Shown: positions 1,744 through 29,891 of the stretch, one piece after another
Layout: each line of letters starts with the position of its first letter
Numbering within the stretch: position 1 is the first letter of the stretch
The notes under the pieces: generated by a model
What the model was told of the DNA's origin: nothing
The model's database searches: none
What the model saw: only the letters and a program-made list of their open reading frames with translations
NCBI GenBank assembly: GCA_046482725.1
Contig: JAWOEN010000036.1
Coordinates: 1 to 39,888, forward strand
DNA length: 39,888 bases
Source: Candidatus Cloacimonadales bacterium
GTDB lineage: Bacteria; Cloacimonadota; Cloacimonadia; Cloacimonadales; TCS61
Direction: 5' to 3'
Program-made: the position numbers and the translations under genes

Positions 1744-2958
1744 ATGAGTAGACTTATAAAATTGATTTTATCAAACCCATTGGCAATTTTTGAGATAATC
1801 TATTATTGGATTAAGCTTTTCTTTATGCACACTCGAGGTAGAAAATTAGTTGTTTTTAATTCACATCACGATTATTTCATCGATATTTTTAATCCGATTC
1901 ATTTAGAATTAAAAGACTATCGAGGCATAGATATCTATTATTCAATCGATACTGATGATAAAAAAATGTATTCTGCTTTAGAAGAAAAAGATCTTCATGC
2001 AAAAATAATCTCTAATAAAATTTCTCCATTTATACCCTTTGATCTATTTATCTGCTCGGAAATTACGGGACCTGATTTCCCCTTTAAGCTTCTTAAGACA
2101 AAGAAGTTGATCACCTATCATGGTAATGGAATTTCTGGTTTCCACAAAAAAATCGATGTAATAAAAAGGTTTGATGCCCATTTTGCAATCGGACCTAAGT
2201 TTAATCAGTTCTTAGAATCAATTTATCCGAATGAGAAGCTGCCTAGAATCTATAATGTGGGCTACCCCAAACTTGATATTCTATTGCAAGAGAATAAACT
2301 AACGAAAAAGCTCAAGCAACTTTATAAGATTAGGGCTGATAAGCCAACAATTTTGTATGCCCCGCACTGGAACCCTTTTGGCTCACTTCATTATTTTGAT
2401 ACTAAAATCATCGATAATCTAGTGCAATATGACATAAACCTGCTGATAAAACCTCACCATTATCTCTATGCCCAATATCCCGAAGCCAACTGGGAAGCAC
2501 GCTTAAAAAAATATGATGAAAAATATCGCAATGTGACTTTAGTAACTCGGCCCAATACACAAGAGCTATACCCATTAGCAGATTTGATGATCTCCGATAC
2601 AGGCACCTCAGCTCCTTTTGAATTCTGTATTTTGCAAAAGCCACTTTTCGTATTTGCCAATAAAGAGTGGTTTGAGGAATTTCCCGATGAAGATAATAGT
2701 GAAGAAGAGGCAATCTTGGCAGCATCAATCTGTTTTGAAGAATTTGAACAGTTTAGAGCAATGTTTCAAGAATTCATAGATCAATCAGCACTATTTCTGC
2801 AGCAATTAGCAGCGCAGAAATCACGACAGAAACATTTGATAGATTGCTTACTCTACAATCCCGGCCAAGCTACTGAGAAAGCGGTGGCTGCTATTTTAAG
2901 AGAGCTGGATCTTCAGCCCGCTGCAAAACAATCTGAACAATCTCGGGCTGACAATTAA
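1744..2958 (+). CDS. CDP-glycerol glycerophosphotransferase (TagB/TagF) family protein
   Basis: 'ILYAPHWNPFG', 'KPHHYLY' and 'NTQELYPLADLMISDTGTSAPFEF' are typical of the Glyphos_transf C-terminal domain. The start was moved to ATG 1744 because AGAGG lies 5 nt upstream; the track's start at 1690 overlaps the upstream gene. Confidence 0.7.
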   Translation: MSRLIKLILSNPLAIFEIIYYWIKLFFMHTRGRKLVVFNSHHDYFIDIFNPIHLELKDYRGIDIYYSIDTDDKKMYSALEEKDLHAKIISNKISPFIPFDLFICSEITGPDFPFKLLKTKKLITYHGNGISGFHKKIDVIKRFDAHFAIGPKFNQFLESIYPNEKLPRIYNVGYPKLDILLQENKLTKKLKQLYKIRADKPTILYAPHWNPFGSLHYFDTKIIDNLVQYDINLLIKPHHYLYAQYPEANWEARLKKYDEKYRNVTLVTRPNTQELYPLADLMISDTGTSAPFEFCILQKPLFVFANKEWFEEFPDEDNSEEEAILAASICFEEFEQFRAMFQEFIDQSALFLQQLAAQKSRQKHLIDCLLYNPGQATEKAVAAILRELDLQPAAKQSEQSRADN

Positions 2959-3820
2959 AACGAACCGGCACCATACTGCAGCCTACCCCACTAGAAGTAT
3001 AACCCTGAAGATTTTGGTATTGCCATTGGCCAGATAAGAGGTGATATGGTACGGGCGCTTCCTTGACCAAGATGATTTTACCCGGCAAACAAATCTGCCC
3101 CGCATGAGTATGCCCGGACAGCATCAGATCATATTTTCGTTCTGCAGCTTCTTGATAAAACTCTGGTGAATGTGAAATTAGCATCCTGAAACCTGCCTCC
3201 TGCAGCTGAGATTCAGCCAACTCAAAATCAGCAGAATTGTAATAATGTCCATCATCCAAACCTACCACAGTAATAGATTGCTTACCCCGAAAAATTTGTA
3301 TTGATTCATTCAACAAAACCTGTACTCCCATTTTCTCCAGTTCCAAGCCCAGCTCATAATCATCATGATTGCCCAGAACAGCGTAGACAGGAGTTTTATT
3401 TACTAGTCTTGGAATCAGCCAGCGCAATTGTTTATAAGTAAAGGCAGGATTGCCAGCAACTCGGAAGCGATAGTCTCCTCCTAAAATCAAACATTCATAT
3501 TCCAAATCAGCACATCTTTGCCAAACCAGTTCAGCTAAACTCAGAAAGCCATCAATATGCAGGTCGGAGATAAAGAGAAATTTATACCCATCAAATTCTC
3601 TCGGCAATTTAGCAAAGCCCAAGCAGACATTTTGCAGCTTGATCTTCTGAGCATTTGCAAAGCCCAGATTGTAGAGCTGGCTCCAGCTTAAGATTTTACT
3701 GATCACTCTGCTCAAGGTTAGCGAATTTTCCGGATGAAATTTTTTCTTTGTCTCTCTGGTCACCAGCTTATAATGCTGGCCTATCTCAGCTAATCGCCTC
3801 TGCTGACTTCTGGGTCTCAT
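2891..3820 (-). CDS. Calcineurin-like metallophosphoesterase (YkuE-like)
   Basis: Canonical motifs are present in order: 'ISDLHIDG', 'GGDY', 'LGNHD', 'GHTHAGQ'. The start overlaps the upstream stop by 1 nt (TGATG). Confidence 0.8.
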   Translation of the reverse strand: MRPRSQQRRLAEIGQHYKLVTRETKKKFHPENSLTLSRVISKILSWSQLYNLGFANAQKIKLQNVCLGFAKLPREFDGYKFLFISDLHIDGFLSLAELVWQRCADLEYECLILGGDYRFRVAGNPAFTYKQLRWLIPRLVNKTPVYAVLGNHDDYELGLELEKMGVQVLLNESIQIFRGKQSITVVGLDDGHYYNSADFELAESQLQEAGFRMLISHSPEFYQEAAERKYDLMLSGHTHAGQICLPGKIILVKEAPVPYHLLSGQWQYQNLQGYTSSGVGCSMVPVRFNCQPEIVQIVLQRAEDPALLK

Positions 3821-5754
3821 CAGGGAAGATAAATATAACTTTCGTCGATGTTTTCAGGTAGATTATGATACCAATTTTGCTGCAAGGTGCCAGAGGATTC
3901 TGCCCACTCGGCAAAATTTCGATAAGCCCAAGTGATCTCTTTCCGCTCTTGGGGATATTGCCACTGCAGCGGGATATTCAAGGCCCAGGGTAGATTATTA
4001 TTGCTTTTATAAAATCGACCTGCTGCTGGACTAGAATTATCATCTTCAGTGCCAAACAAGCTGAGATCTGCTTTGGAGGTAGGTGGGTAGTCAGGCAGAT
4101 GTATCTCTTTGCTAATATCTCCATTTATTCGCAAAAAGGGATTGTAAGGCAATTGATAAGCCAGATCTTCCAAGACCAATGGCGTCTGCAGAGTTAGCCC
4201 AAAGCTCACACTTTGCGGAGAAAAATATTCCATACTCTCTTCTGTATTGACGAAACCGGAGCCGGGTGGGTTCATGATATCATAGGCATCATCAAAGATA
4301 TTTACAATTAAGAGTGGATTATCATATTCAAAATCTACCTGCCCCGCCAAATCAGCTATATTACTAGGATCCACCGGTAATTCCAGAGCAAAACCATTGT
4401 GATAGGCTGCTCCGATTGCTCTTACTTTGATCTGACCGATGATATCTATTAGCCTGTTGTTGGGAGTATGGATAGTTTGGAAATTATAGCCCAGCACCAG
4501 ATCGTTCATATCATAATCACCCTGGCGCGGCCAATAATCTTCGAAAGCCAGAGTTCCCCAGCTATCTTCTGCCGGGTAATAATTATCAAAAGCTCGCTGT
4601 GGATCATCAGGATAATCGTCATAAAGATCACTGATGCCATCATTATCACTGTCTTGCACAATATCCAGAGGATTGACGTTTTCGGTGCTAATCGCCTCGA
4701 TGGGGTTGGAAGTAACATAAAAAACAGCATCATTGAAATCATCGTCTCCCTCCGGCCTTCTCAAATCCTCAAAGCCGAGCAAAAATTTTCCGCTCTCTTC
4801 ATCGTGCAGCAAAACCACGTGCTGTTGATGGGCAGGATCTGGCTCGGGATTATAATCTGAGTTGGAGTAATATCTGGTCCTGGTTTCGCTCACAGAACCA
4901 TAATTCCAGCCATTGGCTACCAAAAACCAGCCGATAACCGTACCTGCTTCAAAGCTTCCCAAATAGACTTTGTCTCCCGAATGCATACCGTCGGGAAAGA
5001 TAGAGACATTGGGAAAAATTATATTATGCTCCAGTTCCGCAGGATCTGCCGGTGCACCCGAATCCAATGAATAAGTATAGTAGCCCAGACTATTCTGATA
5101 GCCGGCACCTTCCTGCACAAAAGTTATCCAAACTTCAGCATCTGCTTCCACCACAGTATTCAGCATCGAGCCAGCTTGCAAATAGTCGGGATGATAATCG
5201 GAAACCGGATAACGCTCAGGCAGCGAAGCATCGACTCGCTGCAAAAAATCCGAGCTGATATAGTCTGTCTGCATATCAATCGGTATGCCGTTAGCATCAA
5301 ATTCTGTCACATATTCAAACCCATCTCTAGAAGTATCTACTCCTACTCTTACCGAACGTTGGGACACTCCACCGATTTGCCACTCCACCTGATTATTTTC
5401 GATAGGTAAAGTTTGGGTGCGCATAAATCCCATAACGGTCAATGAATCTAAACTGGTGGGCAAATTGAGCACTGTCTTATACTCTCCCGCCTGGTTAGTA
5501 GCGCCTCGTGCTAAGATCTTGCCGCCTGATGCTGCAGGTTTATCCATCACTCGAAAAAAGATATGGGGAACCGGTAAATTCCCATTATCCAAAAATGTGA
5601 TTTTTACCTCCACCTCTTGCACAGTTTCATAGCCAAACTGCTCAGAAATCGCCAACTCATCCATCATATCTTTGCTGGATGGATTTTTCTCTTCCAAAAG
5701 ATCGCAACCTAATAAAGATAGAATTATCAAAATCATTATCATACTATTTTTCAT
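3820..5754 (-). CDS. Lipoprotein with DUF4114-like and LruC-like domains
   Basis: The signal peptide has a lipobox ('ILSLLGC'). 'GFEDLRRPEGDDDFNDAVFYV' is a DUF4114-type motif and 'EDYWPRQGDYDMNDLVLGY' is an LruC-type motif. AAGGAG precedes the ATG. Confidence 0.55.
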   Translation of the reverse strand: MKNSMIMILIILSLLGCDLLEEKNPSSKDMMDELAISEQFGYETVQEVEVKITFLDNGNLPVPHIFFRVMDKPAASGGKILARGATNQAGEYKTVLNLPTSLDSLTVMGFMRTQTLPIENNQVEWQIGGVSQRSVRVGVDTSRDGFEYVTEFDANGIPIDMQTDYISSDFLQRVDASLPERYPVSDYHPDYLQAGSMLNTVVEADAEVWITFVQEGAGYQNSLGYYTYSLDSGAPADPAELEHNIIFPNVSIFPDGMHSGDKVYLGSFEAGTVIGWFLVANGWNYGSVSETRTRYYSNSDYNPEPDPAHQQHVVLLHDEESGKFLLGFEDLRRPEGDDDFNDAVFYVTSNPIEAISTENVNPLDIVQDSDNDGISDLYDDYPDDPQRAFDNYYPAEDSWGTLAFEDYWPRQGDYDMNDLVLGYNFQTIHTPNNRLIDIIGQIKVRAIGAAYHNGFALELPVDPSNIADLAGQVDFEYDNPLLIVNIFDDAYDIMNPPGSGFVNTEESMEYFSPQSVSFGLTLQTPLVLEDLAYQLPYNPFLRINGDISKEIHLPDYPPTSKADLSLFGTEDDNSSPAAGRFYKSNNNLPWALNIPLQWQYPQERKEITWAYRNFAEWAESSGTLQQNWYHNLPENIDESYIYLP

Positions 5755-5786
5755 ATAAACTCCTTTTTCAGATGAAATAGATAACC

Positions 5787-7316
5787 TTATTTTTTAAAAC
5801 GTCTACTGATAAATTCCTGAAATTGTGCTCTCTCCCACTTGTAGGTACCAAATCTATAATAGACTAGAATAAAAAACAGTGATGTCAACGCCAATAGCAA
5901 GAGTAATGTCAGAAAATTTTCAGGGTAAAAATAGTGTTTTAAACCCAGCGCAAAGAGCAGTGTGAGCGCCCCGATCCATAAACTGTGCAGTACAGATTGG
6001 CGGAAATATTGAAGTAGGCTAATCTGAGAAAATTTTAAACCCAGAGGGATATTGAAGCTCACAGTAAGAATAGCATTGGGAATCAGAGTGCCCAAAGCAA
6101 CTCCGATAATGCCATAATATCTGATCAGATAAATACTCAATCCCAGATTCATAGCGCATTCGATAATCGCTACTATCGATAGCTTTCGATAATGATTTCC
6201 CATCAATAAGATCTTGACGGAAGTACTGCGGAAAAACACGATCAGATACATCGAGAGCAGCAGCAATACTGCTACCAGCTGCCCATCAGCGTCATCCAGT
6301 TCCAACCAGATCTTTAGCAGTGGACGTACAAAAACAACCAGTGGCACAAACATCAAAGTGGAGATTACTCCCATCAGACGATTTGATTCGATCATAATCT
6401 TGCCCAACTTATCTTCTTGGTTACTGGCAAAAAGTGTAGCAGCAACCGGCGCCAGATTATCCAGAAATTGCGAGGCAAAAGTCTTGAACGTCATCGCCAA
6501 TTTGGATGAAATCTGATATACTGCAATCAGTGAAACCGAGGCAAAAACAGAGATCACCAATTGATCAGTCTGATAGATGATGAGATTGCTAAAGGAAATG
6601 ATATAGGCAAAGAGCGAAAAACTCATCACCTCTTTCAGTAATTTGAAATCGTATAGTTTGAAACTAATTTTTAGAGTTGGAATACTTTTATAAGAGTAGA
6701 AAGCCATCACAATATTGGTCAATAGAGCAGTTCCAATCGTGACAATAGTCATGCCCCACAAGGCCAATCCAGAGTGAATCACCCAGAGCATCAAACCAAA
6801 ATTGAGTAGATTGAAAATTATCTGAATATTGTTACGCAACTTGATCTTATGTAATCCGCGTAAGACCTCCACAAAAAAACCACTGGGAAAAACTACTGCT
6901 GTTCCCACTCCAAACATGATGAAGATTTTCTTATAATAGAGCAGATCACTGTTGGCAGAAAACTGAAACATATTTTGCAAGTTTCCTGCTAGGAAAAAAG
7001 AGACTGCCGCAATCAGAATTGCCAGAAAACTATAATTGAAAAAAACCGTGCTCAGTAAACGATTGTATTTATGCCAATCTTCTGTAACAATAGTCTGGCT
7101 GGTAGATTTTTGGATAGCGGCACCAAAGCCAAAATCCAGTAAAAGTGAGTAGCCAAAAATAGACCACAACAAAGCCCACAGACCGTATTCTTCTCGGCTC
7201 AACCCCAAAAAGAGTGTCCGCGTCAAAAATATAGTTACGATCATCATGGTTACCAATTTTCCATAATTGGAAATAGTATTGGCAATCATAGTCTTGCGCA
7301 AGCCGCTCCCAGCCAT
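5787..7316 (-). CDS. Polysaccharide biosynthesis protein / oligosaccharide flippase (Wzx-like, MOP superfamily)
   Basis: About 500 aa and polytopic, probably around 12-14 TM helices. It sits within a glycan locus, and its start overlaps the upstream stop by 1 nt (TAATG). Confidence 0.7.
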   Translation of the reverse strand: MAGSGLRKTMIANTISNYGKLVTMMIVTIFLTRTLFLGLSREEYGLWALLWSIFGYSLLLDFGFGAAIQKSTSQTIVTEDWHKYNRLLSTVFFNYSFLAILIAAVSFFLAGNLQNMFQFSANSDLLYYKKIFIMFGVGTAVVFPSGFFVEVLRGLHKIKLRNNIQIIFNLLNFGLMLWVIHSGLALWGMTIVTIGTALLTNIVMAFYSYKSIPTLKISFKLYDFKLLKEVMSFSLFAYIISFSNLIIYQTDQLVISVFASVSLIAVYQISSKLAMTFKTFASQFLDNLAPVAATLFASNQEDKLGKIMIESNRLMGVISTLMFVPLVVFVRPLLKIWLELDDADGQLVAVLLLLSMYLIVFFRSTSVKILLMGNHYRKLSIVAIIECAMNLGLSIYLIRYYGIIGVALGTLIPNAILTVSFNIPLGLKFSQISLLQYFRQSVLHSLWIGALTLLFALGLKHYFYPENFLTLLLLLALTSLFFILVYYRFGTYKWERAQFQEFISRRFKK

Positions 7317-8083
7317 TATTCAGCCTCCTCTTCAGCCTGTTCCAAGCTAAAGCTAACCACCCGATTGAGCTGATAATCCAATTTCTGATTCTCTTCACTC
7401 AGCGAAATTCTCTCACCGTGGATAATAATCTTTATCTCATTGTCAACCTGCTGAGCCAAAAATTTCTTCACTGCCAAGCCACGCCGATAGGAAAGCTGCC
7501 GATTGTATTCTGCACTTCCTCGCTCATCAGCATGAGCATGAACGATCAAAATATAAGCAGGATTTTCTGATAAAAATTTAACCAGATCAGTCATTTTGGA
7601 TTTTTCACTCTCGGCCAAATCGGCGCTATCAAAAGCAAAATAGATCTGGGGCAGCTTTATCAGCTGCTTTTCTGTAACTACTTTGATGATCTCCACGACT
7701 TCTTCTGCTGCTTCAACTTGCTCGCTAGATTCGATTTCTGCTAAATACTCTTCCTGAATTGCCGATTTTTCTTCGATCTCGACTCGCTCTTTGGCCTGAT
7801 AATCCATGAAAATCGTCATTTGCGGCGGAATAGGTGGAACTTTTAGATAGATATTTTGCGGAAACTGACTCTCATAGAAAGGCTCTGCTTTGATATTGAT
7901 AAATTTAGATTTTTCATACCAAATTGTGGTGGTCAGCGGACTAATCCCCACATATTCGTTGTTCACATAGATCTTAGCTGCTGTGGGCTGAGTTTTGATC
8001 AGGATCTTGGCTTTGCTTACACCACGTGGAATCGAGGAACAGCCGACTAGAACCAGAAAAATGAGATAGATAAAACGTTTCAT
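7316..8083 (-). CDS. PEGA-domain / OmpA-family (peptidoglycan-binding) lipoprotein
   Basis: Lipobox 'LVGCSS'. A PEGA-like segment reads 'IKTQPTAAKIYVNNEYVGISP'. The C-terminal OmpA-like domain reads 'IYFAFDSADL...HADERGSAEYNRQLSYRRGLAVKKFL'. Confidence 0.75.
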   Translation of the reverse strand: MKRFIYLIFLVLVGCSSIPRGVSKAKILIKTQPTAAKIYVNNEYVGISPLTTTIWYEKSKFINIKAEPFYESQFPQNIYLKVPPIPPQMTIFMDYQAKERVEIEEKSAIQEEYLAEIESSEQVEAAEEVVEIIKVVTEKQLIKLPQIYFAFDSADLAESEKSKMTDLVKFLSENPAYILIVHAHADERGSAEYNRQLSYRRGLAVKKFLAQQVDNEIKIIIHGERISLSEENQKLDYQLNRVVSFSLEQAEEEAE

Positions 8084-9276
8084 GATTTTTCCTTTGCAGC
8101 AACCCGAGCTCTAAAGATTTCGCCTGAGCCTGAGATTCGGTAGCTGGGAGCTGCGGCACAAATAAAGGCAGATTCTCCCTGTTTTAAGCTGATGGTTGCA
8201 CTTGCTGCCAGCTCTATCTCACCGGCTGTGCAAAGTATGATCTCGGGACTGCTCACAATATTTTCTATTTCGCCAGCAGAAATTTTTTGCCAGCTCAGCT
8301 CGAATTCTTTGGCTGGGGTGAGATAAATTTTTTGCTGCTGCTCTTGGCGAATTTTTACCTTTCTCACAGTGCCAAAATCGAAGAGCAAAGTTTTCTGCAA
8401 TTGGGCAATATCAATGTGCTTGGAAGTAAGCCCACCGCGTAAAACATTATCAGAATTTGCCATAATCTCGATGCCACTACCTTGCAAATATGAATGCAAA
8501 ATTCCTGCTTTCAGATAGAGGGCTTCGCCCGGAGCTAATTGGATGAGATTGAGATAACTGGGCGCCAAAACTCCGATATCATTCGGATATTTTCTGTTTA
8601 ATTTCAGTATCCAGTCGCAGATTAGTTGCTCCGCTTGGTCGCGCCCTGGCTGCAAATTTTGCAAGGTGGATTCTACGATTTGCCGCTGCTTGAATTGGGG
8701 TAAATTTAACATTTCCAAAAATAATTTTTGGAAAGTTTTTGCCTGCGGTTTTTGCAAAAACTGCTCACTACCCTGCGGCCAAATCTTCTGATAACGCCAA
8801 AATTTGGCTATCTCGCCAATTGATCTAAATCCACACATTGCCCAAAATGGGGTGAGAGCACAGAGCAATTCGGGCTTATGATTATTATCTTTATAATTAC
8901 GATATAGCGCCTTTTGACTTATACCCAACCTATTTTCGCGGGCAAAACCTTGTTCAGCCTGAATTTTGTTGGGATGCGCCTGAATCGATAGCGCAGATTC
9001 TGCCGATAATATTTTTAGTAAAAAAGGCAATTTCTTTTCAAAACCCGAGCTCTCTAAATCACCCAAAAAATGAGTGGGATGATGCGCGATCTGCTCAGCC
9101 AAAGATTTGACATTATCTTCCCAAATAATTTTTGAAGACGCTTTGGGATGTGCACCCATCCACATCTCCGCTTGCGGTTCTAGAGAAATCTCCTCGCCCT
9201 TCAGCTGCGCGATAAAGTCTTTGCTGCCCCAGTCATAGTGCTGGATCTCATTACTCATCTTGAATATGTTTCTCAT
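8080..9276 (-). CDS. manA: Mannose-6-phosphate isomerase, class I
   Basis: 'IQHYDWGS', 'EMWMGAHP', 'LSIQAHPNK', 'HKPELLCALTPFWAMCGFR' and 'YLKAGILHSY' are hallmarks of type I PMI. The start may instead be the internal ATG at 9258 (MSNEIQHYDWGS). Confidence 0.85.
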   Translation of the reverse strand: MRNIFKMSNEIQHYDWGSKDFIAQLKGEEISLEPQAEMWMGAHPKASSKIIWEDNVKSLAEQIAHHPTHFLGDLESSGFEKKLPFLLKILSAESALSIQAHPNKIQAEQGFARENRLGISQKALYRNYKDNNHKPELLCALTPFWAMCGFRSIGEIAKFWRYQKIWPQGSEQFLQKPQAKTFQKLFLEMLNLPQFKQRQIVESTLQNLQPGRDQAEQLICDWILKLNRKYPNDIGVLAPSYLNLIQLAPGEALYLKAGILHSYLQGSGIEIMANSDNVLRGGLTSKHIDIAQLQKTLLFDFGTVRKVKIRQEQQQKIYLTPAKEFELSWQKISAGEIENIVSSPEIILCTAGEIELAASATISLKQGESAFICAAAPSYRISGSGEIFRARVAAKEKS

Positions 9277-10424: not shown

Positions 10425-10432
10425 CGTCACTC

Positions 10433-19753: not shown

Positions 19754-19762
19754 GATTACTCC

Positions 19763-20671: not shown

Positions 20672-21485
20672 TTTCTTCCTTCTTTGATAGCAGCTCACTC
20701 ATCCAGATAGTCTCATGTGCTTCTAAAAAGTCCAAGATTCTCTGGAACGAGATAAATTTGTCGCATAAATAGAGTGTGATGGGATGGATAATCAGGTTGG
20801 AGATCACGCCGTTTTTCTCATTAGCGGCCAATTGCTGCAGCACCAGGTCAGTCCACTCTTCCACATAATAAGATTCAGCGCCAAAATCATCTGACCAATT
20901 ATAGCGCTTTTGCCACTTTTCGATCCACTGGGGAGTGCGTTCAGCGTGGATCAGATGTTCATGATCCGGGATAATATTGAGGGGAAAATTGTAGATACCA
21001 CTAGGATGTTTGATCAAGCCATTGGACTCTTTTTTCACACCATCCGAGCAGATTTTGATGCCGCCAGCGTAGAGTATAGTTTCAGTATTTTTGCCATGCA
21101 TATACATATGATTTCGCCAAACCTGTAAATCCCGATTGGTTTTTTGTTTGATAATATGAGCAGTTTTGCGCAGATCGCGGCGCTGATACCAGCGCGGGCC
21201 ATTGTAGCTGTCGATCAATTTATTCCAAATGCGATGCCACAGAGTATGCTCAAAGCAATCGTAATTGTGCCCGCCCAATTCCACATTATCACTTTGGCAA
21301 ATTTGTTGCAAATCATCCCACTCTTCGGCAAAACTTTTACCCGAGATGAAGTAAGTAACTTTCACCTTGGCTTGCTGCAGCATTTTATTATAGATCTGGG
21401 CGCACTGAATTTCGCTGATCTCGCAATGCTGCTGATTTCCCGTGTTCAAGGAAGCGTGATGGATATCGCCGGTAAGACAGATCAT
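20661..21485 (-). CDS. Hypothetical protein, possibly a divergent polysaccharide deacetylase-like (NodB/CE4-related) enzyme
   Basis: It has His-rich motifs spaced like NodB motifs: 'LTGDIHH' versus TFDDG, 'ELGGHNYDCFEH' versus H[ST]xxH, and 'VWRNHMY' versus RxPY. The resemblance is weak and was judged by eye only. Confidence 0.35.
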   Translation of the reverse strand: MICLTGDIHHASLNTGNQQHCEISEIQCAQIYNKMLQQAKVKVTYFISGKSFAEEWDDLQQICQSDNVELGGHNYDCFEHTLWHRIWNKLIDSYNGPRWYQRRDLRKTAHIIKQKTNRDLQVWRNHMYMHGKNTETILYAGGIKICSDGVKKESNGLIKHPSGIYNFPLNIIPDHEHLIHAERTPQWIEKWQKRYNWSDDFGAESYYVEEWTDLVLQQLAANEKNGVISNLIIHPITLYLCDKFISFQRILDFLEAHETIWMSELLSKKEENDE

Positions 21486-22711: not shown

Positions 22712-23865
22712 TATTTCCTCCCGGATATTTCATAAAAAGTTTGATACAATTTAGCGATGTGAAAATCAGGAATAAATCTCTCTTGATAATCGGCCAATCC
22801 CTGCTGACCAAATTGATTTGCCAAATCCCGATCTGCTGCCAATTTTTCGAGCGCTGATGCCAGTTTCTCCACATTATTGGAAGGCACTAAAAATCCATTT
22901 TTCCCATCTTGCAGCCAAGTAGAGATTCCACCAACATCAGTAGCGATAATTGCTGTGCCATAACTCATGGCTTCTAGGCCAGTCAATCCAAACGTCTCGG
23001 GACTGCGGCTAGGCATCAGCAAGCAGATGGCTCGCCGATAATAAGCGGCCAAGGCGCTCTGCGAAATCCTACCTGTCCAGATCACATTTTGTGATATCTG
23101 CAGCTTCTCCGCCAACTGCTTGAACTCATCTTCCTGCGCCCCGGAGCCACAAATTATCAATTGCTCGGTCAAGGCTAATTTGGCCCAAGCTCGCAATAAA
23201 ATATCGATTCCCTTACCGCGCACGATTTGACCCACGAAGAGAAAGATATCTTTCTTTTGCTCTTCTGCAATATCGGGTTCTTTGCTCGAAAACAGATGAT
23301 TAACCAAAATTTTAGCAGCGGGAAAATGATGGGCTAGCAGATGATTGCGCATATATTCCGAGCCCACAATTATCTTATCCAATTTCATATTGGCTTTTTG
23401 CTCTGCCCGCATCTTTGCCAAGCTGTTCAGTTTCAGATAGGGAAAAGCTGATTTTTTGCCGATAAATCCCAAACAGGGAAAACAGACTGGGCCAATCGGC
23501 ACCGTACATGTTTCCAATTTTCGGGTAGTGTATTTATGCTGGCGCAGACAAAATAATTTATGATCGTGAAAAAATCTGAGAACCGGGATTTTGCTTTCCA
23601 AGATCTCCAAAATTGGCTTTCTGCCATCTAATCTTTGGATGTAGATCAGATCTGGCGCAATTTCCTTGATCTGTCTTTTCAGCTCTACCATGGGAAAAGC
23701 AGCCTCAAAAAGCTGGAGAAATTTTATCTCATTTTTGCCTGCCACAGCGTAGAGCAAAGTGGATTTTACCTGATATTTTTCTCTTAGCAATTTTACGCAA
23801 TCCAACATATAGCGCTCACAGCCTCCGGTAAAATCGGCTACTTCATTTATCCATAAAACGTGCAT
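22711..23865 (-). CDS. Glycosyltransferase family 4
   Basis: 'LLMPSRSPETFGLTGLEAMSYGTAIIATDVGGISTWLQDGKNGFLV'. The start is set at ATG 23865 because AAGGAG lies 6 nt upstream, which removes the 19-nt overlap implied by the track. Confidence 0.85.
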   Translation of the reverse strand: MHVLWINEVADFTGGCERYMLDCVKLLREKYQVKSTLLYAVAGKNEIKFLQLFEAAFPMVELKRQIKEIAPDLIYIQRLDGRKPILEILESKIPVLRFFHDHKLFCLRQHKYTTRKLETCTVPIGPVCFPCLGFIGKKSAFPYLKLNSLAKMRAEQKANMKLDKIIVGSEYMRNHLLAHHFPAAKILVNHLFSSKEPDIAEEQKKDIFLFVGQIVRGKGIDILLRAWAKLALTEQLIICGSGAQEDEFKQLAEKLQISQNVIWTGRISQSALAAYYRRAICLLMPSRSPETFGLTGLEAMSYGTAIIATDVGGISTWLQDGKNGFLVPSNNVEKLASALEKLAADRDLANQFGQQGLADYQERFIPDFHIAKLYQTFYEISGRK

Positions 23866-23867
23866 TC

Positions 23868-25043
23868 TTAGCTCCTTGCTCGCCAATTATTTATCATCTC
23901 CACCAAATTTTGGGCTACCACACTATCGAGATATTTCTCATAGCTTTTCTGCTGCAGATTTGCCCCCATCTTTTCCGCGAGTTGGGGATTTTCGACCAGC
24001 TTGAGAATGGCCTCAGCAAATCCTTTTTTTTCATCTGCAATGATAATTTCATTGGGCTCAAATTCAAATCCTTCTGCCCCGATCGAGGTAGAGATTACGG
24101 CAGTTTTCAGATTGGCCGCTTCCAAGATGCGCGTTCTGGTACCCGAAGCGATCCTGATGGGTAGGATGGTAAACAGCGAATTAGCTATCTCTGCATTGAT
24201 ATCTTCTACTTCTCCTTTCAAATCCAGTAATTCCAGTTCTTTTGCTTTTGCCGCCATTTCCTCGGTTTGGTGCCGTCCCACGATTCTGATCTTCATCTGC
24301 TGCTGCTGCAATTTAGCGGCGACCAAGGGATATATTTCGTCGGTCAGAAAATCAAAAGCATCGCTGTTGGCAGCAGAATTTAATGTTCCAAAAAATAGAA
24401 TATAATTTTGCTTCGTTTGGGGAAGAGGATAATCGGCTGCTTGCATCACGTTGGGCATAACCTGCAAGAGAGATTTTGAGATAGAGTAGACGCTATCTTC
24501 TTGCGCCATCTCTTTTTCCAGATAATTGGTAAATAGAAAGAGATATGGTTTGTTGAAGAGTATTTTCTCATAATGTCTAAATTTTTTATTCTGGATATAA
24601 AAATATCTATTCTTGAAAGTGGGATTATTTTGCCAGGAGAGCTTGGTAAGGCGTGACATCAGCATGTCGATATCAAAAACTATCTTGGCATTCGGCAAAA
24701 TCTCTGCCGCTATGTCTGCTAGCAGGGCGGGAGCAGCAAAGCGAATGAAGATAATTTCATAATTATTCTCTTTCAGAATCTGCCGAAATCTGTTTGTTGC
24801 CGCTTCGGAAAAGTTCATAATAGCTTCCGGTCTATTAAACAGGGGCTTGGTCGTAGAAAGTTCATAAAAATTATGCTGCCCCACATGCTCCTGATACTGA
24901 TAATCTGGAGCTAAATAATCTTGCAAAAGTAAAAGATCAACCTCGAAATTTTCGATCAAAGCTTTCCAGATAAATTTACTTCTGTTTTTATCTCCACCCT
25001 TTTCGCCTTGAAAGGGCCGATCGATATAGAGTAGTTTTGCCAT
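23868..25043 (-). CDS. Glycosyltransferase, GT4-like
   Basis: 'ILPIRIASGTRTRILEAANLKTAVISTSIGAEGFEF' matches the common GT4 C-terminal block (GGTRxKxLEAxAxGxPVVST.IGAEG). Confidence 0.75.
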   Translation of the reverse strand: MAKLLYIDRPFQGEKGGDKNRSKFIWKALIENFEVDLLLLQDYLAPDYQYQEHVGQHNFYELSTTKPLFNRPEAIMNFSEAATNRFRQILKENNYEIIFIRFAAPALLADIAAEILPNAKIVFDIDMLMSRLTKLSWQNNPTFKNRYFYIQNKKFRHYEKILFNKPYLFLFTNYLEKEMAQEDSVYSISKSLLQVMPNVMQAADYPLPQTKQNYILFFGTLNSAANSDAFDFLTDEIYPLVAAKLQQQQMKIRIVGRHQTEEMAAKAKELELLDLKGEVEDINAEIANSLFTILPIRIASGTRTRILEAANLKTAVISTSIGAEGFEFEPNEIIIADEKKGFAEAILKLVENPQLAEKMGANLQQKSYEKYLDSVVAQNLVEMINNWRARS

Positions 25044-25045
25044 TT

Positions 25046-26290
25046 TTATCTCTCCTTCTGTTTTGCGATAACACGTTTGTAAAAATTTATTAATCTATCG
25101 GTAATCGTCTCCCAAGAATATTGATCACACACTTCCTGATAAGCTTGCGGGATGATTTCACTTTTTCTCTGGCGCATCTCATAAAATTTTTCTACCAATT
25201 CATCCAAATCGTCTTGGTGGAAAAACAAGCCAGTCGCGCCGTCAGAGATCAGCTTTTGCAAGCCGCCCACATGATGTGCTATTACCGGTAATTTACTAGC
25301 CCAAGCCTCTAGAGCCACGATACCAAACGGCTCATGAATGGAAGGTAGGATAAAATAATCCGCTGTCAAAAATGCTTTGGTCAGATCAGCGTCATCAGGA
25401 GCCAAACCGGGAATTATCGTAACCTCCGCTGCCAAATCAAATTGCTCGATCCGCTGCTGGATCTGGGCTAGATATTTTTGGGAAGTCACAGGCCCGATCA
25501 AGAGAGTATGGACTTTTTCTCCTTGCTTTTTCAGGCGCTGCTGCAGATCGATTATTCTTATCTGATTTTTTTGATAATCAATCCTACTCACGCAAAGTAA
25601 GATTTCAGCATCACTCTCAATCTGATGTTTTTCGCGAAAATCATTATTATCTATCGCTTCGAATTTTTCTATATCAACCGCATTGGGTAGATACTCTACC
25701 AGTTTATCAGGATATTGGGCTTTGGTCGTCAGATATTCGTTATACCCAACACAGATTATCCCATCTGCATCGCTCAGAAAATGTGAGTTTTGATGAATTA
25801 GATCAAAAATTTTCCCGTAATTAAAGCTATGTTTCAGAGGTTGCATCATCTCTGCAATCTCACTTTGGGGCACTTCGAAAAATCCGCCATGAAAAGAGAT
25901 GACATAGGGAATATTGCGCTTTTGGGCTACTCTGCGCACAGTGTTGGCCAGGCGCTGCATAGTGTGGCAATGCAAGATCTGCAACTCAGGTTTTTGCAGT
26001 AGATATTTATAGAGTTGAGGAGAGTAAGGATTGCCGCCTTTCTTATCCAGAATATCTTGGTTTTTTTGGTTCAAGTTCAGGTAAGGATAAAAATAGTCAA
26101 AGCGCCTGATTTGCAAGCCTTCAACTGTTTCATGCTGTTTCGAACAAAGAGCTTTGGTCGCCAATATCTCGGTGGGATGCCCTTTCTTTTGCAACTGTTT
26201 GGAGCTATTAAAAACCACAGTTTCAGTTCCGCCCCATTCCTCAAAAGTAAATCTTCTCAGAATCTGACTGGAAACAATTTCATCTCGCAT
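25046..26290 (-). CDS. Glycosyltransferase family 4
   Basis: 'FILPSIHEPFGIVALEAWASKLPVIAHHVGGLQKLISDGATGLFF'. The gene begins 1 nt after the stop of the upstream sensor gene. Confidence 0.85.
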   Translation of the reverse strand: MRDEIVSSQILRRFTFEEWGGTETVVFNSSKQLQKKGHPTEILATKALCSKQHETVEGLQIRRFDYFYPYLNLNQKNQDILDKKGGNPYSPQLYKYLLQKPELQILHCHTMQRLANTVRRVAQKRNIPYVISFHGGFFEVPQSEIAEMMQPLKHSFNYGKIFDLIHQNSHFLSDADGIICVGYNEYLTTKAQYPDKLVEYLPNAVDIEKFEAIDNNDFREKHQIESDAEILLCVSRIDYQKNQIRIIDLQQRLKKQGEKVHTLLIGPVTSQKYLAQIQQRIEQFDLAAEVTIIPGLAPDDADLTKAFLTADYFILPSIHEPFGIVALEAWASKLPVIAHHVGGLQKLISDGATGLFFHQDDLDELVEKFYEMRQRKSEIIPQAYQEVCDQYSWETITDRLINFYKRVIAKQKER

Positions 26291-26291
26291 A

Positions 26292-29200
26292 TTACACCTT
26301 CTCTTTTATTTTTATCGTGGTTTCATTCATCTCGCCCAGCCGCTTCAGGCTTATTTCAGCAGCGATAGAATAGATGATCTGCATGCCAAAACCTCCACTC
26401 CGCTCAATATCAGCATTTAGACAATCACAATTTCTCTCCGGCAATTCCCACTCTCTTCCCTTGTCCCAGAAAGTGAGAAAAATATCTTGATTGATAACCA
26501 GTTCCAATCCGATGACTTCTGCCCGATCTTGTTGGATTCCATGTCGAATAATATTGCTCAGATATTCGTTGATCAGCAGCTCTACTCGATCTGCCAAAGG
26601 CTCATTCTGCAAAGTATCTTTGACGATTTCATTGCATTCTGCTCCCAGATCGGCAATGTTTTCCAAATTCGGTTTTAGCGTAAAAATCTTGCGAAATTCC
26701 GGTTTGAGCTTCTCGACTAATTTTTTGAATGTCAGCAGCGTAAAATCATCTGTGCTGATATCATAATTCTGCTCTTTCAAAATAGCCAAAAAATTCTCCG
26801 GCAGTGAAATAGCCGAGGTAAAATCTCCTTGCTGTTCGATAAATTTGTGGAAACCGGCTAAACCAAACTGCTCGCCTGCTGCATTTTCGCATTCGAATAT
26901 ACCATCTGTGTAGAGCATAAATGCTTTCTCTGCAGAAAATTCCACCACACCTTCTGCCTCTGGTAAATAGTCAAAATCTTGGCTCCAACCCACCGGAATC
27001 GAGCCGCCTTCATCGATAATTTTTACCTCTTTCTGCACCAAATCATATTGGATCAGGGGAGGATGCCCCGCACTGAAATAGCGGATTTCCTCTTGTTCAT
27101 TGTCGATAATGCAAAGCAAAATGGTCAGATAATTTTCATGAAAAAGATCTGCTGCCAAGATCTTATTTAGTTTCTGCAAAATAAAGCTGGGCGATAGCTG
27201 CTCTTCTGGGCTGGAAACGATCATGTTGATGATAGATTTCACCGCAGTCATCATCAGGGCAGCTTGCACTCCATGCCCCGAGATATCCCCGATGTAAACC
27301 AAGGTTTTATTGGCAGAAAGCTTGATGATATCAAAGAGATCGCCACCGATGAGACTGGATGGTTTGTAGGTGGAAGAAAAAATTATCTCATCTTGTTTGG
27401 TCAGCCAATCCGGCAAAAGATATTGTTGCACTGAAGAGGCAATATCCAGCTCTTTCAGAAGAGAATTATACATTTGATTCAGATAATCTTCATTGGCTTG
27501 GCGGTTGATGGCAGCTCCGATAGAATCTGCTACCATGGTAAGTGTCTCCACTTCCATCTGGCTCCATTTTCTTTGCTCTTCTATCATGTCAAAGCCGATA
27601 AAACCCCAGAAAATCTCATTGGCAAAAATCGGCACCAACAAAATGCTACTCACCTGATTTCCTGCCAAAAATTTATTGTCTGGAGCTATCTCCTGCACAT
27701 TGCCATAGATCGATGCTTTATCGAGCAATCTGCCCAACCAATCAGCAAAACCCAAATCACTGTAGCTGTAGACAGTATCTGCCTCCAAGCTCACCGAAAG
27801 TTTTTGAGCCCGCTCGGTTTGCCAACTGTGAGCATATTTCATCAGCATCGAGCCTTCAGCACTTTCCATATTTTCAAAGAGATAAACGCGATCTACCTCC
27901 AAAACTTTGCCATACTTTTCCAAAATAAGCTTGATGCTCTCCTGCCAATCTTTTTTGGTAAGGAAGAGATTGGATGAAACCGATAAAGCTTGCAGAATCT
28001 TATCGCGTTGAGCTAAGTTCTTTTCTGTGTTTTGTCTACTCTTGATATTAACAATAATCTGAGAAAAAAGTTTTAGGAGATTTACTTCTTTATTGGAATA
28101 AGTATTTTGTTTTTTCACCGAATCAAATCCCACAAAGCCGAAGCATTTCTGGCCTGCCATAAGGGGGATGGTGATCAAACTTTTTACCTGCTGCGGCTCC
28201 AAGATCTTTCTTACCGAGTCAGATTTATCCAACTCAAAGATATCGGGAATATATAGGATTTCGCCTTGGCTATGTGCTTCTACCCATTGGGGCATAGCAC
28301 TAAAAGGCACCCGCTGCAATTCATCTATCTGCGCAGATATTCCTTTCGCACACCATTCATAGGTGTTAATGCAGATTTCTTTATCCCAGTCATAATCAAA
28401 AATATAAGCACGATCTGCTTGGGCAAAAGCACCCAATTCTCGCAGGCCATTATTGGTAGCTGAATCGATATCTTTTAAATCTAGATTGATATACTTGGTT
28501 GAAATGTTCATCAGAATATTTTGCAAACCACTTTGATACTGAAGTTCCGCTTCTGCCTGCTTGCGCTTGCTAATATCTTCCAAAACTCCATCAAAATAGA
28601 TAATGCTCTTATTCTGATAGATCGCCTTGGAATTGATCGCTATCCAAAAATGTGTGCCATCTTTCTTCTGCATCTCTGCTTCAAAACGCTGGACCTGACC
28701 TTTATCGATCAATTTCTTTAGCAAGCTCTCACGCTGCTGCGGTTTTACATAAAAATCCTTCACATTCTTCTGCATCAGCTCGGACATAGAATCATAGCCA
28801 AACATCTTGACCATGGCCGGATTGGCTGAAAGTAGATGCCCCTGCAGAGTAGAGCGATAAATCCCGATGGGAATATTGGTTTGCAAAGTGCGATATTGCT
28901 CTTCGCTCTTGGCCAATTTTTCTGCTGCCAATCTGCGCTCTGTGACATCTTCAAAGCTGACAATGGCTCCGTAAAATTCCTCATTTTCCAATAAATCTAT
29001 GCTGTATAAGATCTTGACCTGAGCTCCTCGCTTGCTATAAAGCTCATCTTCCTGCTCAAATTTGGCAGTATTCAGATCAGCAAAATCTACCTCAAAGATA
29101 TCAGTCTGAAATACTTCCTGAGGACGTTTGCCCAGCATCTCTTGCAAGCTATAGCCGGTTATTTTCTCAGCTCGCACATTCCAGCTGGTGATCCGATTGT

Positions 29201-29891
29201 TCAAATCTATACTAAAAATTGCACTGGGCACCAGCTGATTGATCGTTTCGGCAAAATTTTTGGCTTCGGTAAATTCATCCAAGATCATCTTCAGCTGATT
29301 CTGATTGCGCTGGGATTCCAGATACATCGACTGAAATTTTTTGGTAGAGCTAATGCGAAGATAATTGGCCACATAGGCAAAATAGTAAGCCAAAAGCAGC
29401 AGCAGCACAGAAGTTTGCATCTCTACTTGCAGATTTCCCCAATACAAGCTGGCAATAGTAGCCAATAAAATGGTGCTGCTGATAAAGACAAACCAGCGAA
29501 ATGATAAGAGAAAGATGCCCACTCCCAAAATCATCAATAAAATATTGATTAGCCACAAAGGTTCTTGTTCCAGATTCATCAAAGTGAGAGTGTTGAGAAA
29601 AACCAATAATATTACGAAACTGACTGTATGATAAATATATTTTTGCGGTAATTTTTCATATTGGATGGAAAATAGCACAACTAAAGAGATGAGCACTGTT
29701 ATCCCATTTAAGGTCGCCATAAAATTGCTGTACTCTGCCTCAACGAAAAAAATCTGTCCCAAAACAAAAAAACTGAAAAGCAACGACAAACCTATACAAA
29801 GCGAACGTACATTCTGATAAAACATATACAAAATACGCAGGTCCAGCTCATTCTTTTCCAGTTGTTCCAGATTTATCTGCTTGTTTTCCAT
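26292..29891 (-). CDS. Membrane-anchored multidomain sensor: TM region, 2 PAS, 2 GAF, PP2C/SpoIIE-type Ser phosphatase (RsbU-like) and an RsbW/SpoIIAB-like HATPase domain
   Basis: Residue numbers follow the ORF track. About 5-6 TM helices span aa 35-185. The PAS regions include 'SAIFSIDLNNRITSWNVRAEKITGY' and 'IGIYRSTLQGHLLSANPAMVKMFGY'. The GAF-like regions include 'ADRAYIFDYD...ITIPLMAGQKCFGFVGFD' and 'VDRVYLFEN...ILLVPIFANEIFWGFIGFD'. SpoIIE motifs are 'GGDLFDI', 'GDISGHG', 'AGHPP' and 'YTDG'. The kinase-like N-box is 'NEYLSNIIRHG' and the G-box is 'GGFGMQII'. The start is set at ATG 29891 because AAGGAGA lies 6 nt upstream. Confidence 0.8.
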   Translation of the reverse strand: MENKQINLEQLEKNELDLRILYMFYQNVRSLCIGLSLLFSFFVLGQIFFVEAEYSNFMATLNGITVLISLVVLFSIQYEKLPQKYIYHTVSFVILLVFLNTLTLMNLEQEPLWLINILLMILGVGIFLLSFRWFVFISSTILLATIASLYWGNLQVEMQTSVLLLLLAYYFAYVANYLRISSTKKFQSMYLESQRNQNQLKMILDEFTEAKNFAETINQLVPSAIFSIDLNNRITSWNVRAEKITGYSLQEMLGKRPQEVFQTDIFEVDFADLNTAKFEQEDELYSKRGAQVKILYSIDLLENEEFYGAIVSFEDVTERRLAAEKLAKSEEQYRTLQTNIPIGIYRSTLQGHLLSANPAMVKMFGYDSMSELMQKNVKDFYVKPQQRESLLKKLIDKGQVQRFEAEMQKKDGTHFWIAINSKAIYQNKSIIYFDGVLEDISKRKQAEAELQYQSGLQNILMNISTKYINLDLKDIDSATNNGLRELGAFAQADRAYIFDYDWDKEICINTYEWCAKGISAQIDELQRVPFSAMPQWVEAHSQGEILYIPDIFELDKSDSVRKILEPQQVKSLITIPLMAGQKCFGFVGFDSVKKQNTYSNKEVNLLKLFSQIIVNIKSRQNTEKNLAQRDKILQALSVSSNLFLTKKDWQESIKLILEKYGKVLEVDRVYLFENMESAEGSMLMKYAHSWQTERAQKLSVSLEADTVYSYSDLGFADWLGRLLDKASIYGNVQEIAPDNKFLAGNQVSSILLVPIFANEIFWGFIGFDMIEEQRKWSQMEVETLTMVADSIGAAINRQANEDYLNQMYNSLLKELDIASSVQQYLLPDWLTKQDEIIFSSTYKPSSLIGGDLFDIIKLSANKTLVYIGDISGHGVQAALMMTAVKSIINMIVSSPEEQLSPSFILQKLNKILAADLFHENYLTILLCIIDNEQEEIRYFSAGHPPLIQYDLVQKEVKIIDEGGSIPVGWSQDFDYLPEAEGVVEFSAEKAFMLYTDGIFECENAAGEQFGLAGFHKFIEQQGDFTSAISLPENFLAILKEQNYDISTDDFTLLTFKKLVEKLKPEFRKIFTLKPNLENIADLGAECNEIVKDTLQNEPLADRVELLINEYLSNIIRHGIQQDRAEVIGLELVINQDIFLTFWDKGREWELPERNCDCLNADIERSGGFGMQIIYSIAAEISLKRLGEMNETTIKIKEKV

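Follow-up and report, generated by a model that had tools for sequence, protein, structure and literature searches.

The window analyzed here, a 39,888-nucleotide stretch of a Candidatus Cloacimonadales genome (contig JAWOEN010000036.1), carries at positions 2891-29912 of its minus strand an array of 22 consecutive open reading frames (ORFs), as seen from the ORF listing and an analysis of gene spacing. The array is a Wzx/Wzy-dependent exopolysaccharide or capsule locus, and among its glycan genes it holds the phospho-relay parts of a partner switch, namely a STAS protein with the DS[ST]G[LI]G serine, a PP2C serine phosphatase, and a GHKL kinase of the RsbW/SpoIIAB type. Phosphatase and kinase are joined in one membrane sensor, and the STAS gene is lodged between the gene for the initiating phosphoglycosyl transferase (PGT) and that for a membrane protein which belongs to a family of about 450-480 amino acids, for which we have coined the name LbHx. 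The same four genes recur together in several phyla, which suggests that the switch acts on polymer synthesis directly and not via a sigma factor. They are the following:

26292-29912, minus strand: membrane sensor with about five N-terminal transmembrane (TM) segments, two PAS and two GAF stretches, a PP2C (SpoIIE) domain, and an RsbW-type kinase domain
17149-17868, minus strand: small monotopic PGT, the initiating enzyme (Pfam Bac_transf, E 2e-65; NCBIfam EPS_sugtrans, E 2e-86)
16779-17114, minus strand: single-domain STAS protein of 111 amino acids, the switch output (PF01740, E 5e-20; PF13466, E 9e-13)
15334-16761, minus strand: LbHx, a 475-amino acid membrane protein with a degenerate nucleotidyltransferase-like domain, a left-handed beta-helix, a hydrophobic helix, and a degenerate PGT-like C-terminal domain (Pfam)

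The 32 proteins of the window were annotated with Pfam, NCBIfam, and a hydropathy scan, and the STAS, PP2C, and RsbW-type domains that an initial annotation had read from the sequence by eye were all matched. In the sensor, the SpoIIE/PP2C domain (PF07228, E 4e-32) covers residues 868-1063 and the HATPase_c_2 domain (PF13581, E 3e-8, above the gathering score) residues 1082-1200; the PP2C motifs GGDLFD, GDISGHG, TDG, and DD (metal-binding) can be read in the sequence, as can the kinase N-box E..N..H and the G2 motif GGFGM. The C-terminal half of the protein also matches solved structures, among them RssB of Pseudomonas aeruginosa (3es2) and Rv1364c of Mycobacterium tuberculosis (3ke6), the latter across both PP2C and kinase. 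Because the motifs are intact and solved structures are matched, both activities look catalytically competent by sequence. No Response_reg domain was matched in the sensor by Pfam. The likely true start of the gene is its second ATG at 29891, which had been proposed from the outset, since AAGGAG precedes it by 7 nt. In the STAS protein, Ser56 of the FIDSSGLG motif falls on the phospho-serine in an alignment with SpoIIAA and TM1442, and D54, S55, G57, L58, and G59 are invariant across 30 relatives.

The PGT, whose motifs KFRSM, SIDELPQ, VGPRPP, PGITCIWQ, and GRS are intact, is encoded separately from the STAS protein, with a gap of 34 nt and in a different reading frame, unlike the fused protein All4160 that is discussed below; the LbHx gene follows the STAS gene after 17 nt, in the order PGT-STAS-LbHx. 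The LbHx family comprises at least some 120-150 clusters (50% identity) of full-length proteins of 450-480 amino acids, with 123 matches at E<=1e-30, and its members are labeled variously as 'NDP-sugar synthase', 'sugar transferase', or 'hypothetical' in the sources; NCBIfam holds no specific model for the protein and gave sub-threshold matches only. An AlphaFold (AF2) model built from 44 homologues reached a mean predicted local distance difference test score (pLDDT) of 80, and in Foldseek the N-terminal part of the model resembles nucleotidyltransferases of the RmlA type and also tlr0611, which was the best structural match and on which we found no literature. Although the fold is RmlA/tlr0611-like, the nucleotide-binding loop GGxGTRL is missing from the consensus of the 44 family members. 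A long hydrophobic helix lies at residues ~305-336, and after it comes a C-terminal domain that shows homology to the latter half of Bac_transf (Pfam E 4e-6 in the window, 1e-7 in Chlorobium), in which the family lacks most PGT catalytic motifs, a single Asp and some helix residues ('slD..p.l...l.g.l.l.G..p') being all that is kept. The true PGTs encoded next to LbHx genes, by contrast, keep KFRSM, SIDELPQ, VGPRPP, PGxTCxWQ, and GRS. With GGxGTRL and most PGT catalytic motifs missing, we read LbHx as a double pseudo-enzyme, whose most plausible role is that of a regulatory partner to the PGT at the membrane. An active bifunctional enzyme, combining NDP-sugar synthase and PGT, was considered as well and ruled out, the catalytic motifs of both halves being missing family-wide.

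A search with the full-length sensor was dominated by PAS-domain matches and gave three true orthologues only (57-59% identity, Cloacimonadota), for which reason the STAS protein and LbHx became the search queries; the named closest homologues of all three proteins come from metagenome-assembled genomes (MAGs) of Candidatus Cloacimonetes/Cloacimonadota. One genome per GTDB species was scanned with an alignment of STAS orthologues, and the resulting 80 loci of relatives, designated by L-numbers, were annotated with our own ORF calls and iterated hidden Markov models (HMMs) seeded from the window proteins, the STAS genes being placed by tblastn coordinates. MAGs make up most of these relatives, and their taxonomic assignment may be in error in some cases, as for the 'Armatimonadota' bin L010, whose STAS protein is 60% identical to that of the window. 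Around the 40 best STAS relatives, a PGT gene lies within 1.5 kb in 30, an LbHx gene within 2.5 kb in 28, and at least one of the two in 33; five further loci (Victivallaceae, Opitutales) hold both in the same cluster, which brings the total to 38 of 40. The initial annotation had made its reading depend on whether STAS and sensor genes are linked to glycan genes in relatives, and because this linkage is conserved, the reading is not refuted on this count. Among the weaker 40 relatives, PGT or LbHx is adjacent in only four, and the loci are otherwise HptB-HsbR-HsbA-like, actinobacterial, or canonical; the Bacillota locus L059 holds a STAS gene, a small unannotated ORF, and a gene for a SigF-like sigma factor.

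The recurrent cassette consists of a PP2C-kinase (usually REC-PP2C-kinase, as in HsbR), a PGT, a STAS protein, and LbHx. It is found in Cloacimonadota, Victivallaceae/Lentisphaerae, Kiritimatiellales/Pontiella, Opitutales, Akkermansia, and other Verrucomicrobiota, and further in Chlorobiaceae, Desulfobacterales, Acidobacteriaceae/Granulicella, and one Chlamydiae MAG, so that a switch once described as independently assembled is in fact one member of a multi-phylum set. Cross-phylum BLASTP identity to the window is 51-68% for the PGT, the most conserved member, 39-63% for STAS, 20-42% for LbHx, and 24-60% for the PP2C-kinase region.

The locus L005 (STAS 52% identical) is syntenic in full and stands under a REC-SpoIIE-HATPase_c_2 protein, with the STAS gene between those of Bac_transf and a left-handed beta-helix (LbH) protein. 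L008, L090, and L091 run WecG-Bac_transf-STAS-LbH-...-PCP-Wza-Wzy (PCP, polysaccharide co-polymerase), with no sensor gene in the recovered region, and the Cloacimonadaceae glycan locus retains PGT-STAS-LbHx though its PP2C-kinase gene is elsewhere. The Cloacimonadota MAG locus L001 keeps the order ribonucleotide reductase-sensor-GT4-GT4 (GT, glycosyltransferase family), and a second kind of locus, termed type B (L002-L004 and L006, Cloacimonadota), encodes histidine kinase-response regulator-histidine kinase-[REC-PAS-GAF-PP2C-kinase]-GT4-STAS-ManA; the window looks like a merger of an L005-type full locus and a type-B locus, with a single STAS gene. A sensor with TM/PAS/GAF input and no REC was seen only in the window and its closest relative, L001. 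The initial annotation's PAS/GAF in place of REC is thus a true description of the window sensor and not of the group: the inputs are REC-PAS-GAF in L002 and L006, REC-PAS in L011, and plain REC in L005 and other phyla, REC being present also in L013, L044 (with an Hpt gene), and L043 (with Hpt fused). In one metagenome contig (L003:6103-8674) the 836-amino acid REC-PAS-GAF-PP2C-kinase gene seen in L002:6164-8674 is broken into ORFs of 550 and 324 amino acids, which might be a frameshift or an assembly error, a natural inactivation of the switch also being possible.

Outside Cloacimonadota the cassette can be compact. In Pontiella sulfatireligans F21, Pfam identifies the series Hpt / REC-SpoIIE-HATPase_c_2 / Bac_transf / STAS / NTP_transferase+LbH between a cation-efflux gene and recJ, and because no other glycan gene stands nearby, these genes appear to be the functional unit. 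Akkermansia has Hpt-REC-SpoIIE-HATPase_c_2 / Bac_transf / STAS / LbH (Pfam, the STAS protein by our HMM annotation and BLASTP only). In Granulicella, LbHx, a half-Bac_transf-WecG fusion, and the PGT were found by Pfam, and a divergently oriented STAS gene and split REC-PP2C and kinase genes by our HMM annotation. The Chlamydiae MAG locus L064 has a kinase-STAS fusion beside PGT-LbHx, and a Kiritimatiellia MAG (L048:11318-12757, minus strand) encodes, beside REC-PP2C-kinase/PGT/STAS/LbHx, a 479-amino acid WecG (GT26) with two C-terminal STAS domains (FMDSSALGLL), which is a second kind of fusion between STAS and a glycan enzyme. Chlorobiaceae cassettes split the phosphatase (REC-PAS-PP2C) from a stand-alone HATPase_c_2 kinase and in most cases include a second STAS gene; Chlorobium sp. 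N1 (L040:7121-8419, plus strand) also encodes a sigma-54 activator with an HTH_8 domain, an echo of SypG of Vibrio fischeri, and a 433-amino acid ORF occupies the same position in L022. Many cassette loci (among them L052:7362-8813, minus strand, and L005:7904-9277, plus strand) encode a long WecG whose N-terminal ~200 residues form a partial Bac_transf-like domain, covering Bac_transf profile positions 88-177 in Granulicella; the window WecG (17865-18632) is without this extension.

The remaining genes of the array, together with a hairpin at its upstream end, are listed here from the sensor side onward:

29967-29989, minus strand: strong terminator-like hairpin of 9 bp (6 G-C) with a T-run after it, in the gap between the ribonucleotide reductase and sensor genes
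25046-26290, minus strand: GT4 glycosyltransferase (Pfam), whose orthologue trails the sensor gene in relatives
23868-25043, minus strand: GT4-like glycosyltransferase (Pfam Glyco_trans_1_4, E 2e-18)
22711-23886, minus strand: GT4 glycosyltransferase (Pfam Glycos_transf_1, E 1e-42)
21482-22711, minus strand: 409-amino acid soluble protein, no Pfam/NCBIfam match and no TM segment
20661-21485, minus strand: polysaccharide deacetylase-like protein (Pfam Polysacc_deac_1, E 2e-6)
19763-20698, minus strand: GT2 glycosyltransferase (Pfam Glycos_transf_2, E 4e-20), start probably at ATG 20671
18629-19753, minus strand: GT4 glycosyltransferase (Pfam)
17865-18632, minus strand: GT26 WecG/TagA-type glycosyltransferase (Pfam Glyco_tran_WecG, E 4e-61)
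13328-15322, minus strand: PCP/chain-length determinant-like protein (Pfam Wzz weak, E 0.001; NCBIfam TIGR03007, E 7e-34, below the model cut-off)
12260-13312, minus strand: Wza-type outer-membrane polysaccharide export (OPX) protein (Pfam Poly_export and SLBB)
10908-12257, minus strand: Wzy/O-antigen-ligase-like polymerase (Pfam Wzy_C, E 1e-11) with multiple TM segments
10433-10915, minus strand: 160-amino acid protein with a single TM segment, no Pfam/NCBIfam match
9273-10430, minus strand: weak GT4-like glycosyltransferase (Pfam E ~2e-4, below cut-offs)
8080-9276, minus strand: type I phosphomannose isomerase ManA (Pfam PMI_typeI_cat, E 2e-34)
7316-8083, minus strand: OmpA-domain protein with a PEGA domain (Pfam)
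5787-7316, minus strand: Wzx-type flippase (Pfam Polysacc_synt_3) with ~12-14 hydrophobic segments
3820-5754, minus strand: 644-amino acid DUF4114/DUF4842 protein (Pfam), in the array tail after the flippase
2891-3820, minus strand: calcineurin-like metallophosphoesterase (Pfam), the final array gene

By Pfam the Wzx/Wzy pathway set is complete, with PGT, Wzx flippase, Wzy polymerase, PCP, and Wza/OPX; for the last but one, the PCP, the Pfam match is weak, and support comes from the TIGR03007 match below cut-off and from a two-TM PCP topology (TM at 33-51 and 416-434). The GT26 enzyme probably adds the second sugar. The gene set first proposed was therefore largely sound, with PGT, GT26, GT2, flippase, Wzy, Wza, PCP, OmpA, and ManA all found, and needs correction in the GT4-like enzymes, put at about six, of which there are five (four clear and one weak). 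The GGYGRGEGG motif of the 409-amino acid protein is reminiscent of Pol-beta-type nucleotidyltransferases. Counterparts of the 160-amino acid protein, ORFs of 132-163 amino acids, stand at the same place after Wzy in L005, L008, L090, and others, and a Metallophos gene likewise borders the locus in L005, but on the opposite strand. The genes are as tightly packed as was initially reported: intergenic gaps within the array are all <=34 nt (<=35 nt as first given), and ORFs overlap by 1 nt three times, by 4 nt five times, and by 8 nt once, with two longer apparent overlaps that shrink when internal ATGs are used, one to the 11-nt overlap already noted, with the GT2 gene starting at 20671, and the other to a 2-nt gap.

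Upstream of the sensor gene, at a distance of 110 nt, lies a class II ribonucleotide reductase gene (30023-32278, minus strand), and the hairpin in this gap marks the upstream boundary of the glycan locus, which has a GC content of ~0.40-0.43. Shine-Dalgarno motifs precede most array genes. In a scan for sigma-70-type promoters, sites were no commoner than in shuffled sequence and none fell in the 110-nt gap, where by eye there is at most a weak TTTACA-17-CAAATT; because the scan did no better than on shuffled sequence, the description of the array as one or a few transcripts derives from gene spacing alone. Rfam and tRNA scans of the window gave no match, and the larger intergenic gaps held no credible small ORFs. 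Before the ribonucleotide reductase gene, which is of the class II, B12-dependent type, there is a 538-nt non-coding leader (32279-32816) with no Rfam match, so that neither a cobalamin riboswitch nor another known element was found there. Beyond it, a gene on the plus strand (32817-34859) encodes a 680-amino acid protein with a signal-peptide-like N-terminus and no Pfam/NCBIfam match, between the ribonucleotide reductase gene and those for DUF7033, FtsX-type (LolC-like), and LysS proteins. The housekeeping neighbors LysS, FtsX/MacB-type permease, and DUF7033 (34982-39514), along with the ribonucleotide reductase, are common to the window and the type-B loci L002 and L006, but the switch module is placed differently among them, after the ribonucleotide reductase in the window and between LysS and FtsX in L002 and L006, which points to local rearrangement. 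At the other end of the array, the Metallophos gene and a convergent glycerophosphotransferase-like gene (1690-2958, plus strand) have 68 nt in common at their 3' ends (2891-2958), and the left flank as a whole (112-2958) carries genes for Glyphos_transf proteins of the teichoic-acid type and for an OpgC acyltransferase, a content not expected of a diderm.

The initial annotation had likened the locus to the syp locus of Vibrio fischeri, which includes the sensor kinase SypF and the sigma-54 activator SypG alongside genes for OmpA-like, Wza, PCP, flippase, ligase-like, and sugar transferase proteins and glycosyltransferases. The structural genes of the window resemble this set by Pfam-level class only, and we know of no LbHx counterpart in syp. 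What the two have in common is a bifunctional kinase/phosphatase and a single-domain STAS protein (with Ser56 in both) encoded within a Wzx/Wzy-like polysaccharide locus. SypE is built as kinase-REC-PP2C (PMC10120452), whereas the window sensor is PAS-GAF-PP2C-kinase with no REC, and neither a histidine kinase nor an enhancer-binding protein was matched in the window by Pfam. Unphosphorylated SypA stimulates the formation of biofilm and acts below transcription via an unknown protein target (PMC10120452), its level of action still being called unknown in 2024 (PMC11112999); no sigma partner of SypA is known, and it is considered unlikely to be an anti-sigma antagonist (PMC10120452, PMC11112999). 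With a SypE-type kinase-REC-PP2C, a sigma-54 activator, and a histidine kinase all missing from the window, the locus lacks what defines syp, although it would work in a syp-like manner; a closer mechanistic precedent is the HenR/Alr3423/All4160 module of Anabaena.

In Anabaena sp. PCC 7120, All4160 is a STAS plus Bac_transf protein whose STAS domain is phosphorylated by the kinases Alr3423 and All2284, and a non-phosphorylatable variant of it bypasses the loss of the REC-PP2C phosphatase HenR; All2285 and XssP are related STAS-PGT proteins, and such proteins are rare outside cyanobacteria, the strategy being termed lineage-specific by the authors (Harada, Matsuoka, and Ehira, Mol Microbiol 2026; PMC13555669). 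That wording (PMC13555669) contrasts with the occurrence of the split form in at least six phyla other than cyanobacteria. The modules are alike in that a PP2C phosphatase and a Ser kinase set, or in the window would set, the phosphorylation of a STAS domain tied to Bac_transf, for polysaccharide control without a sigma factor. In Anabaena, however, STAS and PGT are one polypeptide and the genes for phosphatase, kinase, and target are dispersed, whereas the window has a separate 111-amino acid STAS protein between PGT and LbHx, a phosphatase and kinase fused and encoded in the same operon, and LbHx as part of the cassette. HenR carries REC, as do most cassette relatives, unlike the window sensor.

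Rv1364c of M. tuberculosis (PAS-PP2C-kinase-STAS) acts in SigF regulation and is not known to belong to a glycan locus. It shares PAS input with the window sensor and is the best solved structure to span PP2C and kinase in the same order, but its STAS domain is fused to the rest, as kinase and STAS also are in the Chlamydiae MAG cassette. Likewise, the HptB-HsbR-HsbA system of P. aeruginosa and CrsR-CrsA of Shewanella oneidensis have PP2C followed by an RsbW-type kinase in one protein, a separate STAS protein, and a biofilm or matrix output, and with the cassette relatives the HsbR system shares the full REC-PP2C-kinase and adjacent Hpt or hybrid kinases. The initial annotation was thus right that PP2C-then-kinase differs from the order in SypE but not in taking it for a peculiar reversal, this being the standard order in HsbR/CrsR and Rv1364c. 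HsbR (REC-PP2C-kinase) sequesters RpoS, and HsbA binds HsbR, FlgM, and HsbD (PMC6482189); the outputs of HsbA/CrsA are accordingly sigma-related (FlgM/FliA, RpoS) together with the diguanylate cyclase HsbD, with no linked PGT or LbHx, and the window sensor is membrane-anchored with PAS/GAF, unlike HsbR/CrsR with their Hpt-fed N-terminal REC. In Nostoc punctiforme, HmpU/HmpV/HmpW form a partner-switch-like trio tied to polysaccharide secretion, in which the unphosphorylated STAS protein is active on an unknown target (PMC8256260), but phosphatase and kinase are separate, the trio is part of the hmp chemotaxis-like/type IV pilus system, and no adjacent PGT or LbHx is reported. The split cassette was not described in the literature found by full-text searches on partner switching with glycosyltransferase or sugar transferase. 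The locus is best described as a split form of STAS-controlled glycan initiation on an HsbR-type switch, plus a new pseudo-enzyme family.

How such a module might work can be outlined as follows. The membrane sensor would integrate inputs through its TM, PAS, and GAF regions, and its opposed PP2C and RsbW-type kinase would set the phosphorylation state of STAS Ser56. The STAS protein, most probably when unphosphorylated, would then act on the PGT, the product of the gene immediately upstream, on LbHx, the product of the gene immediately downstream, or on both. A membrane complex of LbHx with the PGT is probable, and through it undecaprenyl-phosphate priming, the committed step of repeat-unit assembly, would be switched on and off. 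The domains, catalytic motifs, conserved serine, and cross-phylum conservation of the four genes are observed, and from these we infer in which direction regulation runs, what the STAS protein physically acts on, and what LbHx does. The post-translational control of glycan assembly that was first suggested is thus plausible and now focuses on the initiating PGT; that the first committed step of the polysaccharide locus is gated by a partner-switch-like phospho-relay via PGT/LbHx is, on balance, the reading we favor, with some confidence. More tentatively, and with less conviction than we would need to adopt it, we propose a four-part glycan-initiation switch (HsbR-type PP2C-kinase, STAS, PGT, and LbHx), shared by Cloacimonadota, the PVC group, Chlorobiaceae, Acidobacteriota, and Desulfobacterota, in which LbHx would be the true switching partner and the STAS protein, when unphosphorylated, would attach to LbHx or to the N-terminus of the PGT, freeing or activating the PGT, and a signaling cascade without a sigma factor would gate polysaccharide priming directly; the same logic could then explain how SypA acts in Vibrio, SypR being its candidate target.

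Several observations weigh against gating through PGT/LbHx, and some of them suit an HsbR/CrsR-type transcriptional switch, in which the sensor kinase would be an anti-sigma factor, or the STAS protein would bind one, for a distant sigma factor, and transcription of the locus or of a regulon would be controlled. Relatives carry the exact HsbR architecture REC-PP2C-HATPase_c_2, often beside Hpt or hybrid histidine kinases, and remoter STAS relatives (33-42% identity) stand in HptB-HsbR-HsbA-like contexts without glycan genes. Transcriptional output could be had with no sigma gene nearby, because HsbR-type kinase domains can sequester distantly encoded sigma factors: in Pseudomonas, HsbR sequesters RpoS and HsbA binds FlgM, both encoded elsewhere (PMC6482189). 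In Chlorobiaceae the cassette comes with a sigma-54 activator that has an HTH domain, so that in one lineage at least it goes together with transcriptional control. On the left side of the locus 2.9 kb of sequence are in view, and the sigma probes for the 80 genome loci were single SigF and RpoE sequences that would miss divergent extracytoplasmic function (ECF) sigma factors; they matched one Bacillota locus only, L059, and the ECF probe, of doubtful sensitivity, matched nothing. The absence of sigma factors is accordingly carried mainly by the Pfam-annotated loci. There, the 32 window proteins gave no match to Sigma70, HTH, or other DNA-binding families, as had been noted initially, nor to Sigma54_activat, HisKA, or Response_reg, and the relatives L001-L009, L090, and L091 gave none to the Sigma70 family; with the weak probes included, neither a sigma nor an anti-sigma gene turned up in ~45 cassette loci and the flanks of up to 10 kb to either side of them. 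A global sigma switch would moreover leave the cross-phylum STAS-PGT-LbHx adjacency unexplained, and the STAS-enzyme fusions (All4160 and the WecG-STAS-STAS protein of L048) argue for enzymes as STAS partners. We therefore regard the transcriptional switch as unlikely.

The target of a post-translational switch might also be another one, such as the sensor-linked GT4 (25046-26290), ManA (through precursor supply), or the PCP/Wza export machinery. GT4 orthologues (48-67% identity) lie directly after the sensor gene in L001, L002-L004, and L006 and nearly so in L011, L005, and L013, the start and stop codons of the pair overlapping in L001 and L002, and the reduced type-B loci, which retain only sensor, GT4, STAS, and ManA, have ManA orthologues adjoining STAS in L002 and L006. 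These Cloacimonadota loci (L002-L004, L006) have no PGT or LbHx nearby, and their STAS paralogue may have a different target or act in trans, a further difficulty for the PGT/LbHx reading, as is the fact that the argument for a functional coupling of STAS and PGT consists of gene neighborhood (the 38 of 40 closest relatives) and fusions. Yet the cassettes in their minimal form (Pontiella, Kiritimatiellales, Akkermansia, Opitutales) retain PGT and LbHx but have neither GT4 nor ManA, and the known fusion precedent is with Bac_transf and not with a GT4, so that a different target seems to us improbable. That the STAS protein and the sensor merely share an operon with the glycan genes and regulate something unrelated is scarcely credible: many genomes hold STAS, PP2C, and RsbW-type genes in large numbers and at scattered places, which is nothing specific to this locus, but the same neighbors are kept across several phyla, and by a rough estimate, not a computed one, chance adjacency to Bac_transf would be well under 1%.

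The on/off switching of exopolysaccharide and capsule synthesis after transcription is poorly understood, and for over ten years no target has been known for SypA, which among STAS regulators of glycan loci has been studied best. The sole mechanistic precedent is the cyanobacterial STAS-PGT fusion published in 2026, and what looks like the same coupling is now seen in split form in many non-cyanobacterial phyla, including the gut commensal Akkermansia as well as Chlorobium and Pontiella, of which there are cultured isolates. LbHx is a newly recognized protein family, the putative pseudo-enzyme partner in the cassette, and the PGT/LbHx pair yields a concrete target hypothesis for sigma-less partner switches in glycan loci; a cassette this small and portable could also serve to control polysaccharide production.

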